Sequence record: MH992122.1
DNA from: Escherichia phage OLB35
Reading direction: 5' to 3' (one strand)
DNA length: 64,000 nucleotides
Of the stretch, positions 3,595 to 45,407 are shown one piece after another (within the stretch, counting starts at the first letter, position 1; every line of letters starts with the position of its first letter). A program made the position numbers and the translations under genes. Below the pieces are notes generated by a model. The model did not search any database, was not told where the DNA came from, and was given only the letters and a program-made list of their open reading frames with translations.

Positions 3595-3618
3595 TCTTAA
3601 TTGATTAAATCTTATTTT

Positions 3619-3636
3619 GGGAGACTTCGGTCTCCC
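3619..3636. terminator. bidirectional intrinsic terminator hairpin GGGAGAC-UUCG-GUCUCCC after gene 23 and after the antisense 89 aa ORF
   Basis: Perfect 7 bp GC-rich stem, UUCG tetraloop, T-runs on both sides. Confidence 0.8.
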
Positions 3637-3646
3637 ATTTTTGGTT

Positions 3647-3916
3647 TTATTTCTGTGCAATTTCGATGTAAGTTTTCAAAATATTTTGCCAATTAGGCAT
3701 ACCTTCTTGGACATATGCTGGAGAACCGTCTTTGTTTTTGAATGATGCAAGTTTATCAGTGGCCCAATAGCCTTTAGCTCGAGCTTCAGAATCAACTTTC
3801 ATCCATACTTTGTTGAAGGCATTACCATTAACTTTTGCACCATATTTTTCTACTAACTTAACTGCTTCAGCTTCCAGAACTTTTAAAGTATCTCGTAAGA
3901 AACGTGCTTTAGTCAT
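3647..3916 (-). CDS. hypothetical early protein, antisense to the late head genes
   Basis: 89 aa ORF with RBS GAGGAG and its own GTTTACA/TACTAT early promoter; occupies the 23/24 intergenic site where T4 carries segD; no GIY-YIG motif. Confidence 0.55.
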   Translation of the reverse strand: MTKARFLRDTLKVLEAEAVKLVEKYGAKVNGNAFNKVWMKVDSEARAKGYWATDKLASFKNKDGSPAYVQEGMPNWQNILKTYIEIAQK

Positions 3917-3946
3917 TTTGTTTACTCCTCTGTAGTTGATAAGTCT

Positions 3947-3976
3947 ATAGTATCACATACCAAATACGTTGTAAAC
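3947..3976 (-). promoter_or_regulatory. T4-type early promoter for the 89 aa antisense ORF
   Basis: Reverse strand GTTTACA, 17 nt spacer, TACTAT, then RBS GAGGAG and ATG. Confidence 0.55.
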
Positions 3977-3982
3977 AATCTT

Positions 3983-3990
3983 TATAAATA
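3983..3990 (+). promoter_or_regulatory. late promoter TATAAATA for gene 24
   Basis: Exact TATAAATA 26 nt upstream of the gene 24 ATG. Confidence 0.7.
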
Positions 3991-4016
3991 ATCTATATCA
4001 CATAAGGAAAAATGCA

Positions 4017-5300
4017 ATGAGTAAAATCCAAAAATTATTGCGTGAATCTACAACGTCTACTAGCAACTCAATTGGTCGCCCAAATCTCGTTGCTTTGACT
4101 CGCGCTACGACTAAATTAATATATTCTGACATTGTAGCAACACAAAGAACTAATCAACCTGTTGCTGCTTTTTATGGTATTAAATATCTTAACCCAGACA
4201 ACGAATTAACGTTTAAAACTGGTGCTACTTATGCAGGTGAAGCTGGATATGTAGACCGAGAAAAAATTACCGAGCTCACAGAAGAATCAAAAGCCACACT
4301 AAATAAAGGTGATTTTTTCAAATATAATAATATCGTTTATAAAGTGTTAGAAGATACACCATTTGCAGATATTCAGGAAAGTGATCTAGAATTAGCTCTT
4401 CAGATTGCGGTCGTTCATTTAAAGGTACGGCTATTTTCAGATGCAGCGGTAACAAGCAAATTTGAAAGCTCTGGTAGCGAAATTTCTGATGCAAGATTCC
4501 AGATTAATAAATGGCAAACTTCAGTCAAATCTCGTAAACTTAAAACTGGCCTCACGGTTGAATTAGCGCAAGATTTAGAAGCGAATGGATTTGATGCCCC
4601 TAACTTCTTAGAAGATTTGCTTGCTACTGAAATGGCTGATGAAATTAATAAAGATATTCTTCAGTCTTTAATTACTGTATCGAAACGTTATAAAGTTACT
4701 GGAATTACTGACACCGGATTTATTGACTTGAGCTATGCTTCCGCTCCAGAAGCAGGTCGTTCGTTATATCGAATGGTGTGTGAAATGGTATCACACATTC
4801 AAAAAGAGTCAACTTATACTGCAACGTTTTGCGTAGCTTCAGCTCGTGCAGCTGCTATTCTTGCTGCTTCAGGTTGGTTAAAACATAAACCAGAAGATGA
4901 TAAGTATCTTTCACAAAATGCTTATGGATTCTTGGCAAATGGATTACCTCTTTACTGCGATACTAACAGTCCATTAGATTATGTGATCGTTGGCGTAGTA
5001 GAAAATATCGGCGAAAAAGAGATTGTAGGGTCCATCTTTTATGCTCCATACACTGAAGGAATGGATTTAGACGACCCGGAACATGTCGGTGCATTTAAAG
5101 TTGTAGTTGATCCGGAAAGCTTACAACCGTCTATAGGTTTATTGGTTAGATATGCTTTATCAGCAAATCCTTACACAGTAGCAAAAGATGAAAAAGAAGC
5201 GAGAGTAATTGATGGCGGGGACATGGATAAAATGGCAGGACGTTCAGACTTGTCTGTTTTACTCGGTGTTAAATTGCCTAAAATTATTATAGATGAATAA
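4017..5300 (+). CDS. 24: capsid vertex protein gp24
   Basis: 427 aa, same length as T4 gp24, position after 23; late promoter upstream. Confidence 0.9.
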   Translation: MSKIQKLLRESTTSTSNSIGRPNLVALTRATTKLIYSDIVATQRTNQPVAAFYGIKYLNPDNELTFKTGATYAGEAGYVDREKITELTEESKATLNKGDFFKYNNIVYKVLEDTPFADIQESDLELALQIAVVHLKVRLFSDAAVTSKFESSGSEISDARFQINKWQTSVKSRKLKTGLTVELAQDLEANGFDAPNFLEDLLATEMADEINKDILQSLITVSKRYKVTGITDTGFIDLSYASAPEAGRSLYRMVCEMVSHIQKESTYTATFCVASARAAAILAASGWLKHKPEDDKYLSQNAYGFLANGLPLYCDTNSPLDYVIVGVVENIGEKEIVGSIFYAPYTEGMDLDDPEHVGAFKVVVDPESLQPSIGLLVRYALSANPYTVAKDEKEARVIDGGDMDKMAGRSDLSVLLGVKLPKIIIDE

Positions 5301-7002: not shown

Positions 7003-8133
7003 TTATGGATATGTATAGATGATACCAGTTTCCAAAGCAGTTTTATGGATGATGTATCCATTACGTGATTCTTGAACATCAACTTCTGGATAGTCTTTCA
7101 TCATCTTCTGAAGAGTGTAACGATCCAGGTAGTATTTACTATCTGGATCTTCAGTTTTCCAATCTTTACCTTCTTCAGTCATTTTTTGGATTTCATCCAT
7201 AACCCACCAACCGCACCAGATGTAAGCTGAAGTACGATGTGGAAGAGGATGAACATAAGGTAATTCACCTTCTGGTTCAATTGGAGTCCGTTCAGCAATA
7301 ACAACTTCAGCGGTTGAACTAATTGTCTTTGAAGTATAATTATCTTTAGTTAATACTGCTTCAACTTTAATTGTATGAGTACCCGCTGAGGAGGTATCAA
7401 TACTGTAAGTATCGGTAGAATTACTTTCTGCTACGTTGTCTTTCTTCCAAGTATAAACAATAGCAGTACCACTAGGTTGACTGCTTACAGATGCTGTTAA
7501 AGTTGTTGCTGTTCAATAATGTTGCCGCCGGAGAAGCCGGAGTAACAGCGATGGTAGAATTATTGTCTTCTTATTAACAGTGATAGTTGTTGACGCTTCA
7601 GCTATTTCTGGATTTCCTGCGGAAAGTGCCGTAATTTGGGCAACACATTTAATTTTTTTAACTCCGCTTGTGGTAGGAGTGTAATTGAATGTAGCAGAAG
7701 TTGCTTCGCTCACAGGAGAACCGTCAACGTGCCATTGATACGTAGCAGATGCGCCTGACGGTTGAGAAGCTAAAGCCGCAGTAAATTTAACAGCTGTTCC
7801 GATTACTCCAGCAGCAGGGCTATCAGGAGTTATAGCCAGAGTAGTTGTCTGAGTTTTATTTTTAACTGTGATAGTTGCAGTAGTTTCTGCTGTTTCAGCT
7901 TCAGCTTCTGGAACTGTATTTGTTGCAACTACTTTAATAGTCTTTTGACCGGCAGGTCCTTTTAGAGTATAATCCATTGTAGCAGCCGTAGAATCCTGCG
8001 CTATACCATCCAAAGTCCAGACGTTAGTAATAGTACCATCTGGAGTTTCACCTGCAGGTGTAGCAGTGAATGTTTGTGAACCTCCAATAACCCCTGTAGG
8101 AGTTAAAGGAGATAACGTGACAGTGAACGCCAT
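7003..8133 (-). pseudogene. hoc: hoc (highly immunogenic outer capsid protein) interrupted by an in-frame stop within a short out-of-frame segment
   Basis: Total span 1131 nt = 377 codons, as in T4 hoc; the N-terminal 206 aa ORF (7513..8133) and the C-terminal ORF (7003..7200) are in the same frame; the ORF ends ...KKTIILPSLLLRLLRRQHY-stop, while the Hoc-like sequence in this ~60 nt stretch is in another frame and frame 0 resumes Hoc-like right after the stop. Confidence 0.7.
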
Positions 8134-41497: not shown

Positions 41498-41528
41498 AAC
41501 TTTTTCGGCAATTTACAGATACTCAAAA

Positions 41529-41552: not shown

Positions 41553-42452
41553 TTATAGACCAGCTAACAGGTCATCAAGGTCGCCATCATCAGAAGACGA
41601 GGAACTCATGAAGTCATCTTCAGTTTTTGCAGAACTAAAGGCTTCCATGTCTTTATCAAAATCGTCAAGGTCAGAAGCAACTTTATCTGCAACAGAAGCT
41701 GCTGCGGCTGCTGCACCACCAAGAGCGGCAGTACCAAGAACCTTAGCGAAAGATTCATTTAATTTTTCAAAGGATTTGAACTGGTCTTTAGCCGTCAAAG
41801 TAGTAAGGTCTACCATCTGGTCGTATAGTTCTTTCTGGAATGCTTCGTCATTAATACGAGGAATTTCAGATTGACCCAAGAATTTAGATTCGTCATAGTT
41901 GCTAAAACCAGAAACCTGCTTAGCTTTCAGAACGAAGTTAGCACCTTCAAACGGACAAGTAACATCAACTGGAGTTTCACCCATTTCGGTATCAACTGCA
42001 ATCATTGCATTGATTTTGTCCCAAATCTTTTTACCGAAACGATATTTAAATACTTTACCTTCGTTATCTGGAGCTTGAGGGTCTTTAACAACCAGAATAT
42101 TAGCCCAATAAGAAGTTTTACGTTTCAGTTGAGAATATTCAGTTTTGTTGGTATTGTACAGGTCATTTTTACTAATGTACTGACATACAGGACAAGAGTC
42201 GTAATCACCATGTGTAGAAGAGCAATTTTCAATATACCATTTACCATTTTTCTTGAAACCGTGGTTAACAAGAATTGCAAATGGTAGTGCATCATCAGTT
42301 TTTGCTGGCAAGAAACGAATTACCGCTTGACCATTACCTGATGCATCTAGCTTCAGCTTCCATTCGCCTTTATCTTCTGAAGAGAAACCTTTGTTACCGT
42401 TCAGTTTAGCCATTTGAGCAGCGAGGTCAGCAGTAGATTTACGTTTAAACAT
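41553..42452 (-). CDS. 32: single-stranded DNA-binding protein gp32
   Basis: 299 aa; zinc site [12 protein letters not shown]; acidic C-terminal tail; AT-rich leader upstream. Confidence 0.95.
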
Positions 42453-42533
42453 GGATTATTACCTTTTATTTAGATTATTTAATTTATTTACAGTTGGTTG
42501 CTACGACACTTATACCTCGTAGCTGGTATGATT

Positions 42534-42541
42534 TATTTATA
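42534..42541 (-). promoter_or_regulatory. late promoter TATAAATA for gene 32
   Basis: Reverse-strand TATAAATA about 80 nt upstream of the gene 32 ATG, followed by an AT-rich leader with TTAAA-type repeats. Confidence 0.55.
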
Positions 42542-42570
42542 AAGTAATTTTAACACACAAGAAATAAAGC

Positions 42571-43224
42571 TTAATACTTACATGATTTGATTGTTTCTAT
42601 GAACAATTTCTTAGCAGCATTTCCATCGATTTGGAGTATTTTTCGATATGCCTTTAATTTGGTAGAATAATTTTGCCAGACTAAATTGTCAGTAAGTTCG
42701 TCATGCTTATCTATAATATTCAAGAATGAATCCAACAACAAGAAGGTTTCAAATGAAATTATATTGCTTTGTAGCAATTTAAATATGTAGCTCGACTGAA
42801 CTTTATTATTATAATCAAATATCTCTTGAAGCGCACTAACTTCCACTTTCTTACTGAAATAGTAGATGTTACGTACATCTTCAGCAAACGTCTCCTTGGC
42901 TTGTTTGAGACGTCCAATATATTCCCTATAGAAAACTAATGCATCAGCGTCTGAGATCTCACCAATCCATGCATCTTGGTTAGCAACTAAGTTACTGATG
43001 AATATCAAAGTGAGTTCCTTTAACTTATATTTCTCTGCTAGTTTCTCAAAGAAATATTTATCTCGGCGTTTTTGATACGCATTATCCGAAACACGCATGC
43101 ACCAGTTATATTTGATTACGTCATACCGACCACCAAAATGGTTTTTGCACATCAAGTATAGTTTATATACCGATTTTCCGTTAATATAACGTTCTCCATC
43201 AGGAGGCATGCGTATTTTAATCAT
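42571..43224 (-). CDS. 59: helicase loader gp59
   Basis: 217 aa as T4 gp59; N-terminus MIKIRMPPDGERYINGKSVYKLYLM. Confidence 0.9.
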   Translation of the reverse strand: MIKIRMPPDGERYINGKSVYKLYLMCKNHFGGRYDVIKYNWCMRVSDNAYQKRRDKYFFEKLAEKYKLKELTLIFISNLVANQDAWIGEISDADALVFYREYIGRLKQAKETFAEDVRNIYYFSKKVEVSALQEIFDYNNKVQSSYIFKLLQSNIISFETFLLLDSFLNIIDKHDELTDNLVWQNYSTKLKAYRKILQIDGNAAKKLFIETIKSCKY

Positions 43225-43900
43225 ATTTCCATCCGGGCCATTTTGAAGATTTAAGTCTATATGTAACTAAAGACGCAGAAATATTAAAAACATTTGAAAC
43301 TTCTTTACACGAGGCGTATTTTATACCATCAATAATTATAGGTTTTTGTTTTTTAATAGTTCTTTCTTTAGAATGCGGCTTTGAATTTGCTATTCTAAGA
43401 GCTTCTTTGGTTGAATCAGGCATCGGCTTATTCGTTTTTCGCCCTTTTCGGACTTTACTCAAGGCCAATTTGTGAGCTTCAGATAGTTTCTTACCCTTAT
43501 TAGGTGACGGTATTTTTCTTTCTAGTCTTGTTTTAGATACTTTAGCCTTAGTCTCTTCAGATCTAGGTTTACCTAATTTAGAAAGTGAAATAGACCTTTT
43601 AGCTTCATCACTTTGTTTTTTACCAGGACCACCTTTACCACCGGGAACTAAGTTATAAGTATCATCTCGCAAAACAAAATCTTCGTTAACCAATTCTGCT
43701 TCTTTTTTATAGGCGTCCTTGTCATTATCATATTCATAAAGAATTTCGGTATAAAAATTTTTTAGTCCATATTTAGCTTTGGCCGCTAATATAGCGCGGC
43801 CTGATCCAATATACCAATCTTTCTCTTTATGTTTTTTGTGTACGCCTATATAAATTTTACCATTTATTTTATTGGTAGTTTTATACACAACGTATTTCAT
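43217..43900 (-). mobile_element. free-standing GIY-YIG homing endonuclease (Seg / I-TevI-like) with NUMOD3-type repeats and C-terminal DNA-binding domain
   Basis: 227 aa; GIY-YIG core VYKTTNKINGKIYIGVH..E..YNLVPGG; Lys/Ser-rich linker repeats; wedged between 33 and 59 with 4 and 8 nt overlaps. Confidence 0.8.
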
Positions 43901-44235
43901 AATAAGAAATCTAACGTATTAGTTTTTTCACCACGAGCAACTGATGGGCGAAGCATGTTTTCGTCAATTGCTTCGCTTGTAATTTTTTCAACAATTCCTG
44001 TAGGAATAAATTTAGCAAATTGTGTTTCTGGAATAGAATTTTCTTCCAAGAAAGCAGTTGTTGCTTCTAAATAAGACATACCAAATTGTTCAACCATGGA
44101 TTCGATAATGAATCCGTTTTCTTGACGGTCAAGCAATTTAGCGATATCATCTTTATCGTGTTTTACTGCTAATTCTTGTTCAGATAAACCGGTCTCATCA
44201 ACCGGTTTAATATCACTTAGTGAAAACTGTGTCAT
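43897..44235 (-). CDS. 33: late transcription co-activator gp33
   Basis: 112 aa, T4 gp33 size and position. Confidence 0.9.
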   Translation of the reverse strand: MTQFSLSDIKPVDETGLSEQELAVKHDKDDIAKLLDRQENGFIIESMVEQFGMSYLEATTAFLEENSIPETQFAKFIPTGIVEKITSEAIDENMLRPSVARGEKTNTLDFLL

Positions 44236-44482
44236 AAAGCTCGACTACCTCTTCGTTTTCAGCTTCAAATTGGTCACGAGCATCTTTATGATAAAGAGCT
44301 AACAAACGATTAAACATTTTTCCATCGACGCCAAGCTCTTCTTTAGCACGAGTACGAATGTCTTTAATCAGTTCATTATAACCAGAAATTTTAAGTTTGT
44401 TATCGGAAGCTTCCTTGACTAGTTTAGCCAGTTCTTCACCATGCACATCTTGATTAAATTCAACTGCTTCTTTCTTAGCCAT
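44213..44482 (-). CDS. dsbA: double-stranded DNA binding protein DsbA
   Basis: 89 aa as T4 DsbA, overlaps gene 33 start. Confidence 0.85.
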   Translation of the reverse strand: MAKKEAVEFNQDVHGEELAKLVKEASDNKLKISGYNELIKDIRTRAKEELGVDGKMFNRLLALYHKDARDQFEAENEEVVELYDTVFTK

Positions 44483-44489
44483 GTTTACC

Positions 44490-45407
44490 TCAGAATTCGT
44501 TAATTACACTTGTTAATTTAGAAAGACCAGATTTTACAAAGTATGAATAAATCTTGCCTTTAGGTTGTGGTTGATATGAGTTATAATACTCTATAATGGT
44601 TGAAGCAATATTATCAGGAATATAATCAAAATCAATTAGAACTAAATTTTCCTGATACCGTTTATATTCTTCTGCACTTAATAATACTTCAGCTTGAGAA
44701 CGGTCATTGGCAATTGCTTCAATAATCGTTGTTTTCATGCTTGGAGTTCGTTCGCCTTCAACTCGAGTAAACCAGAAGTCACCACGAACTCGAACAGACG
44801 CAACACCATCTTTACGGTCGCCTTTAAGAATTTTAGTCATGCAATCAATTTCAGCAGAACCATTCTTAATTTTAACCCATTTTTTCTGCGGTGGCGACCA
44901 CTGTTTAACGTTAGGGTACTTGTGTAATTGTGTAAAGTCACCATCTGATGCAACAATACACACCTTATGACCAGCTAATGACAAATATTTAGTTAATACA
45001 CCGATATGGTCATCCGCTTCGTATTTGTCAATATCCATTACAACGTATGGCATATATTTCTTAATCTCATCAACAACTTGATGAAGTGCAGTAAAATATC
45101 CTTCCCAATCCCACTTTGAAGCTTCACGATCGGTTTTACGATTTTTCTTATAATAGTAAGCAAAGTCACGACGCCAATATCCAGAAGTAGCGTTATCCAT
45201 GCACAATACAAATTTTGTATAACCTTGCTTACGGAACATCACTACGTTTTTACGAATTGAATTCAAGACTACATGGCGAACCATCGGAACAGTAATTTTA
45301 TCACCGTCTTCAAAGTTGTTTAATGCAGCTGCCAATGCAATGTTACTAAAGTCGGCAAGTGCAATACCTTCTTTGTAATCTTCATTCAACATCATTTCTA
45401 AATCCAT
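44490..45407 (-). CDS. rnh: RNase H (5'-3' exonuclease)
   Basis: 305 aa as T4 Rnh; position upstream of dsbA. Confidence 0.9.
   Translation of the reverse strand: MDLEMMLNEDYKEGIALADFSNIALAAALNNFEDGDKITVPMVRHVVLNSIRKNVVMFRKQGYTKFVLCMDNATSGYWRRDFAYYYKKNRKTDREASKWDWEGYFTALHQVVDEIKKYMPYVVMDIDKYEADDHIGVLTKYLSLAGHKVCIVASDGDFTQLHKYPNVKQWSPPQKKWVKIKNGSAEIDCMTKILKGDRKDGVASVRVRGDFWFTRVEGERTPSMKTTIIEAIANDRSQAEVLLSAEEYKRYQENLVLIDFDYIPDNIASTIIEYYNSYQPQPKGKIYSYFVKSGLSKLTSVINEF

Follow-up and report, generated by a model that had tools for sequence, protein, structure and literature searches.

In Escherichia phage OLB35 an open reading frame (ORF) of 227 amino acids stands between gene 33 and gene 59, two genes that abut in phage T4. 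This locus raises the question of what kind of gene has been added there, whether it moves between phages and, if so, which sequence it attacks. We analysed a stretch of 64,000 nucleotides (nt) of the phage sequence (MH992122.1, referred to as the window), in which the locus is the canonical T4-type rnh-dsbA-33-59-32 block plus one added gene. The added gene is very probably a Seg-like GIY-YIG homing endonuclease gene. It is present in some and absent from other close relatives, and it is linked to a short patch of substitutions near the start of gene 59, which points to this part of gene 59 as the probable target. At the annotation level the gene is not new, and many GenBank records already label it '(Seg-like) homing endonuclease'.

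Presence and absence at the 33/59 junction

The region around the ORF is 96–99% identical to many Mosigvirus (RB69-like) phages, with Escherichia phage 55 as the best match (99.2%). The junction was surveyed in a phage collection by means of an empty-junction probe, and abutting and split matches of this probe were counted. Genes 33 and 59 directly abut in 138 records, 13 of which belong to another genus, leaving about 126 empty Mosigvirus genomes. The probe is split in 28 records, and a copy of the ORF at an identity of at least 95% was found in the same 28. The endonuclease-free alleles on which the initial annotation of the ORF had made its reading depend are therefore common among close relatives. 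RB69, JS09, HX01, p000v, mar005P1 and Bas46 have the empty junction. The occupied genomes, among them phage 55, AV110 and Bas47 (PaulHMueller), come from four species (Mosigvirus utam, JS09, 25307 and mar005p1), each of which also has empty isolates.

Alignment of occupied and empty alleles delimits a segment of 676 nt that is confined to the former (Table 1). This segment is flanked by a duplicated ATGA (TATGA), and because of the duplication the stop/start overlaps are kept in the occupied as well as in the empty state. The overlaps of the ORF with the stop of gene 33 and the start of gene 59 were found as initially described: the ATG of the endonuclease gene and the TGA of gene 33 share four nucleotides as ATGA (43897–43900), and the final eight nucleotides of the ORF, ATGATTAA (43217–43224), hold the start of gene 59, the endonuclease stop codon being made from codons 2 and 3 of gene 59.

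In T4-type loci (L008–L010, L016, IMG/VR) genes 33 and 59 abut with nothing between them. This agrees with the T4 endonuclease genes listed in Table 1 of PMC2988022, where segG is placed at 32/59, segD at 23/24 and segE at inh/uvsW and none at 33/59, and it bears out the claim that no gene intervenes in T4. The other known seg sites had been described as empty or differently occupied, and indeed no seg gene was found at any of these three sites in the window: the 32/59 gap of 118 bp has no ORF, the inh/uvsW gap measures about 56 bp, and in the 23/24 gap there is nothing but a small, unrelated ORF. The latter ORF (gap at about 3595–4022, about 89 amino acids) lies on the opposite strand and corresponds by homology to a 'hypothetical protein' of phage 55. 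When all ORFs of the window were scanned with tblastn and hidden Markov models (HMMs) for paralogues of the Seg-type GIY-YIG domain, only the ORF itself was returned.

The gene 59 patch linked to the endonuclease gene

The flanks of 12 occupied and 12 empty Mosigvirus alleles were scanned for fixed sites between window positions 41500 and 45450. No flanking site is fixed and none shows a frequency difference of 0.6 or more; the flanks are mosaics. A single nucleotide polymorphism conferring immunity in Mosigvirus was ruled out, as no fixed difference exists over this interval. The sites linked to the endonuclease gene in Mosigvirus are nt 60, 82, 84, 91 and 92 of gene 59 (window positions 43165, 43143, 43141, 43134 and 43133). 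All 12 occupied alleles read GCAAAAACCA(T/C)TTTGGTGG at nt 78–95, corresponding to ...CKNHFGG... in gp59 (type B). Six of the 12 empty alleles, including those of RB69 and JS09, read GCAAACAACATTTTAATGG (...CKQHFNG..., type A), which is the T4-like state. Collection-wide 96 records are of type A, p000v and Bas46 among them, and 58 of type B. Every listed occupied record is of type B, and arithmetic from these totals and from the 28 occupied and about 126 empty genomes gives a split of 28 B and 0 A among occupied versus 30 B and 96 A among empty genomes (Fisher p ~7e-15, phylogeny ignored). About a quarter of the empty alleles (30 of about 126), for example those of phages G53 and F2, thus bear the patch.

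Pairs of occupied and empty genomes from three genera gave a similar picture. The Mosigvirus window sequence differs from p000v at nine positions of gene 59, five of them at nt 60–92 and four in nt 96–654. In the Karam-like lineage the comparison of one occupied with three empty genomes revealed 20 substitutions in nt 24–84 of gene 59, against 10 differences in nt 96–654 and two to three in gene 33; within the patch almost all third codon positions are hit, and G11E, L26I and N28Q result in addition. Between the occupied Winklervirus phages of the CBH8 and LC53 types and Erwinia phage Gravdalen, gene 59 has 22 substitutions in nt 28–78 and none in nt 96–654, and gene 33 has one; Serratia phage X20 as the empty comparator led to the same outcome. 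The distal end of the patch thus lies at nt 78, 84 or 92, depending on the genus. No comparable tract exists on the other side of the junction, where the gene 33 flank is unchanged between occupied and empty alleles right to the junction; between genera gene 33 is more divergent than gene 59. A replicate in Dhakavirus was uninformative, since IME540 and its comparators L014, L015 and L027 (Moonvirus) share only 60–75% identity and are too divergent.

The patch resembles a tract left by co-conversion or one that confers immunity. In all three genera this bounded piece of foreign or diverged gene 59 sequence appears to be inherited together with the endonuclease gene. Because the tract is one-sided and sharply bounded, the enzyme probably cuts or recognizes DNA within the 5′ ~100 bp of gene 59, and judging from these alignments we lean, by a narrow measure, towards a target within nt ~1–100. 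The initial annotation had left the choice between gene 59 and gene 33; a linked patch at nt ~24–92 in three genera next to an unchanged gene 33 shifts this choice towards gene 59. Inspection by eye of the sequence around nt 64–100 of gene 59 revealed no CNNNG motif of the I-TevI type.

Table 1 Features of the 33/59 junction and of the encoded endonuclease (window coordinates)
Feature	Position	Strand	Size and evidence
Free-standing gene, very probably for a Seg-like GIY-YIG homing endonuclease	43217..43900	-	227 aa, ATG start; PHROG, Pfam, model and fold matches
Segment present in occupied and absent from empty alleles	43221..43896	-	676 nt; 12 occupied and 12 empty alleles aligned
Gene 59 nt 24–92, endonuclease-linked patch	43133..43201	-	Haplotype split; homologous patches in two other genera
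Gene 59 (helicase loader), probable target gene	42571..43224	-	217 aa; T4_Gp59_N 2e-49, T4_Gp59_C 2e-44
Gene 33 (late-transcription co-activator)	43897..44235	-	112 aa; Pfam Trans_coact 3e-26
GIY-YIG nuclease module, residues ~1–92, beta-beta-alpha-beta-alpha	43625..43900	-	Invariant residues, Foldseek 1mk0
Lys/Ser-rich helical linker, four NUMOD3-like repeats, residues ~93–184	43349..43624	-	Model helices; NUMOD3 18 bits
C-terminal I-TevI-type DNA-binding domain, residues ~185–227, beta-hairpin and helix-turn-helix	43217..43348	-	Pfam, phmmer, Foldseek

Architecture, relatives and age of the endonuclease

The protein has an I-TevI-like modular plan composed of a nuclease module, a NUMOD3-like helical linker and a helix-turn-helix domain (Table 1). 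This architecture, which had first been read from the ORF by eye, was confirmed by Pfam searches, an AlphaFold model and a fold search. PHROG 314 'homing endonuclease' matches the protein with 3e-56. The Pfam family I-TevI_DNA-bd (PF20987) matches residues 183–226 with 46.4 bits (cut-off 27), and the I-TevI DNA-binding domain 1i3j is the sole phmmer match among PDB sequences (E 7e-4). The AlphaFold model was built on an alignment of 49 homologues and has a mean predicted local distance difference test score (pLDDT) of 87. Its nuclease module consists of strands 2–10, 16–23 and 49–57 and helices 35–44 and 60–70. Four short helices (98–108, 115–127, 141–152 and 162–173) form the linker and bear NUMOD3-like repeats of the type S-x-E-x-K-x-K-x-S. 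Both solved domains of I-TevI were the top structural matches in a Foldseek search of the PDB, 1i3j with a probability of 1.0 and the catalytic domain 1mk0 with a template modelling (TM) score of 0.65 over 95 columns; the remaining meaningful match was I-HmuI (1u3e).

The residues Y6, Y17, G19, H21, Y30, G32, E67 and N83 are invariant across the 49 aligned homologues. The GIY-YIG motifs of the protein read VVY (4–6) and IYIG (16–19), with Y6, Y17 and G19 as their two tyrosines and glycine, and E67 and N83 are the conserved Glu and Asn. The catalytic residues of I-TevI are E75 and N90, and the Arg of its helix 1 is R27; by their position in the modelled fold E67 and N83 would correspond to E75 and N90. 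I-TevI, the endonuclease of the T4 td intron, follows the same order of N-terminal GIY-YIG domain, flexible linker and C-terminal helix-turn-helix, and shares ~23–31% identity with the window protein in the structurally aligned parts. The window protein differs from I-TevI in being encoded outside an intron, in having a linker built from four NUMOD3-like helices and in its nuclease motif, which is the Seg variant (YIGxH...DxYxGSG). It also has no zinc finger of the I-TevI type, since C198 is the single cysteine in the whole protein.

The best match in T4 is SegC, which shows only ~33% identity and is encoded at a different locus, and the window protein is therefore not the orthologue of any named T4 Seg protein. 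Its nearest non-identical homologues form a distinct group with 47–58% identity and 197–236 amino acids. All eight members of this clade that were examined are located at the 33/59 junction with the same overlaps, and they represent at least four genus-level lineages: Dhakavirus IME540, the LC53-type and CBH8-type Serratia phages of Winklervirus, a Karam-like lineage and three metagenomic T4-like contigs. The between-genus identity of these orthologues compares with 54–61% for gp33. The orthologues of Dhakavirus IME540, Winklervirus and the Karam-like lineage share with the window gene the junction, the ATGA start overlap, the end inside the gene 59 start and the architecture. Some junction orthologues have a shorter linker and only 197–204 amino acids compared to 227; their linked gene 59 patches differ in sequence, and specificity may have drifted. 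Orthologues at this junction in other genera exceed the cut-offs of the Pfam GIY-YIG families PF01541 (24.0 and 29.9 bits, cut-off 22.6) and PF19835 (26.3 and 25.5 bits, cut-off 25), and that of IME540 reaches 22.7 bits for NUMOD3. More distant homologues lie at other loci, beside a Mu-type portal gene and, in an Acinetobacter phage, beside gp2. In Shigella phage Shf125875 (L031, KM407600.1) the depositors used the label 'SegH; similar to RB3 segH', which is unconfirmed; the locus known for SegH is a different one.

All 12 retrieved Mosigvirus alleles are intact ORFs of 684 nt; they contain 60 variable sites and form two main haplogroups. Pairwise synonymous divergence (dS) of the endonuclease gene reaches 0.21–0.24, compared to 0.27 for gp59 and 0.22 for rnh, and the ratio of nonsynonymous to synonymous divergence (dN/dS) is about 0.10. 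From the low dN/dS together with the deep dS it follows that the gene is old in Mosigvirus and under purifying selection. The copy of AV116 (L051, OR352946.1), one of 28, carries an additional C at nt ~311 (AGGTCT to AGGTCCT), leading to a frameshift after residue ~103, and the record annotates only a C-terminal fragment of 139 amino acids. It represents either a decaying copy or a sequencing error.

Some further observations concern the surroundings of the locus. Beyond gene 33 the window continues with dsbA, rnh and gene 34, and beyond gene 59 with gene 32 and frd.2. Between genes 59 and 32, which is the segG position of T4, Dhakavirus IME540 (L003, 3845–4462) and L054 (3146–3811) have an extra ORF of 205–221 amino acids. 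The ORF of IME540 has no Pfam match at E ≤0.01, and the record of L054 names no Pfam family for its ORF; a second mobile or accessory gene could be present at this neighbouring junction. The gap between genes 59 and 32 measures ~690 bp in L009 and L016 versus ~100 bp in L008 and L010, which is consistent with presence and absence of segG among Tequatrovirus-like genomes. In the hoc region ~360 bp of the window (~7278–7636) do not align to the otherwise 97% identical phage 55, and the ORF at the hoc position (7513..8133) has 206 amino acids while 376 are annotated in phage 55. This suggests that hoc is divergent or rearranged in the window.

Probable homing of the endonuclease gene and alternative readings

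On the coding strand no late-promoter box and no match to a MotA-type middle promoter was found between positions 43900 and 45500, and a scan for sigma-70-type promoters gave nothing convincing near the ORF. RNA folds at the two coupling junctions are no more stable than those of shuffled sequences (z = −0.2 and +0.3; −1.6 for the empty allele). In view of the missing promoter match and of the lack of significant junction structure, the endonuclease gene looks promoter-less. The 3′ end of gene 33 can fold into a hairpin that involves the downstream start-codon region (window 43920–43860; 2285–2385 in the empty L001). It is not significant compared to shuffles, neither in the occupied (z = −0.2) nor in the empty state (z = −1.6), and might contribute to translational coupling. 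In our view the gene is part of the rnh-dsbA-33-59 transcription unit, in which it would form a cassette without a promoter of its own; its translation is probably coupled to that of gene 33, while translation of gene 59 would be initiated from inside the 3′ end of the endonuclease gene.

Similar cassettes are known from T4. The genes of SegG (32/59; cuts gene 32) and SegF (soc/56; cuts gene 56) are, like the window gene, free-standing GIY-YIG genes amid replication genes, promoter-less within an existing operon and missing from close relatives. SegG lies across the same gene 59, on the opposite side from the window endonuclease; the 33/59 junction, unlike the SegG and SegF sites, is unoccupied in T4. 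Intron-less homing is established for T4 SegB, SegE, SegF and SegG, and for SegG and SegF it goes along with co-conversion of flanking markers and localized marker exclusion (PMC2988022).

According to the account that we favour, and consider likely, the window gene is a free-standing, intron-less Seg-type GIY-YIG element that spreads by classical intron-less homing; there is also good reason to believe that it is homing at present or did so recently. In a mixed infection the enzyme would cut the genome of an endonuclease-free relative in or beside the first ~100 bp of gene 59. The recombination machinery of the phage would repair the break with the carrier genome as template, and thereby copy the 676-nt cassette together with the first ~80–90 bp of gene 59 into the recipient. 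The substitutions of the gene 59 patch probably protect carriers from their own enzyme. A repair tract ending short of the cassette would leave an empty, patch-bearing and resistant allele, and later loss of the cassette by recombination may be another source of such alleles. From these comparisons we infer an active nuclease, its precise target, the direction in which the gene was transferred and a role of the patch in immunity. That nuclease gene and immunity patch together form the mobile unit (676 nt plus ~80–90 bp of gene 59), kept across at least three or four genera, is an idea to which we give slightly less than even chances.

Several results speak against this account or parts of it. 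Of the three domains matched in the window protein, only the DNA-binding domain passes its Pfam cut-off, while SegE_GIY-YIG (22.4 bits, cut-off 25) and NUMOD3 (18 bits, cut-off 20.4) stay just below theirs. The canonical Arg of the GIY-YIG fold cannot be assigned from the alignment, as the column of R35 is variable (R/K/A/S), although H21, Y30 and K43 are conserved among close homologues where this column varies. A common donor of the patches was rejected, since patches of different genera share 67–68% identity and are no closer to each other than to empty alleles, and no nucleotide separates occupied from empty alleles across all three genera. The specificities of the orthologues may differ, or the patch may be mere hitch-hiking. 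Full linkage in Mosigvirus extends over only ~90 bp and could be neutral, and the sequences by themselves fit gain of the cassette as well as its loss.

Alternatively, the same endonuclease may recognize a site spanning the 33/59 junction. Insertion alone would then abolish the target and confer immunity, and the patch would be a tract passively co-converted from a diverged donor. I-TevI binds at its insertion site and cuts about 25 bp away, and the window protein has a DNA-binding domain of this type. Furthermore, TTATTATGATTAAAATACGCATGCC at the junction shows high conservation among genera, Mosigvirus has no flanking site that is fixed between occupied and empty alleles, and 6 of the 12 empty alleles share the gene 59 haplotype of the occupied ones. 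Nevertheless, a passive tract originating from a cut at the junction should spread both ways, and none is seen on the gene 33 side. The patches start only at nt 24–28 and have nearly the same end in three genera, and the many patch-bearing empty alleles are easier to explain with a cut distal to the patch. A junction target thus appears unlikely to us, and still less probable is an old resident that no longer homes, being inherited vertically and lost repeatedly while it either benefits the phage by competitor exclusion or regulation or decays. The alleles of the gene have diverged in dS as deeply as the flanking genes, its divergence between genera resembles that of gp33, the AV116 copy is frameshifted, and T4 SegD reportedly does not home. 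Decay is contradicted by the intact state of all 12 alleles and by the low dN/dS. Flanks of 99–100% identity between occupied and empty genomes indicate that gain or loss was very recent relative to the age of the alleles, and from the bounded patch of foreign sequence it is evident that recombination moved the cassette in one piece.

The label 'group I intron endonuclease', which appears in several GenBank records and agrees with the homology to I-TevI domains, would make the gene intron-encoded. Both neighbours of the ORF are complete genes, which overlap with it and directly abut in empty alleles, and no Rfam match, intron families included, was obtained in 42300–44600 at E ≤1. On account of the gene arrangement and the missing Rfam match we rejected the label, and its chance of being correct is negligible.

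We return to homing into gene 59 as the favoured account. Where T4-like phages are otherwise near-identical, differences in gene content are in large part due to free-standing homing endonucleases, which also bias which parent's markers survive a mixed infection. The element described here was found at a junction at which T4 and RB69 have no such gene. Variation of homing endonuclease genes between close relatives was noted in general terms in a paper on Winklervirus (PMC10132071); in the literature that we searched, neither an element at the 33/59 junction nor its target nor the linked patch in gene 59 is described. If cassette and patch indeed move as one unit, cleavage would occur within ~100 bp of the insertion, whereas the sites of free-standing endonucleases lie hundreds to thousands of bp away according to PMC2988022. 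With each move two to four residues in the N-terminal portion of gp59 would then change, and about a quarter of the empty Mosigvirus genomes would have survived earlier attacks by being resistant. The junction would thereby offer a tractable natural system in which the homing cycle of invasion, immunity and decay can be followed in a phage population. The comparative result amounts to a precise and easily testable target prediction and does not change the view of how such elements work. The practical bearing is modest; the element adds a candidate modular GIY-YIG enzyme with a predicted natural target, and in work with Mosigvirus cocktails or engineered Mosigvirus phages the element could skew the recovery of recombinants near the essential genes 33, 59 and 32.

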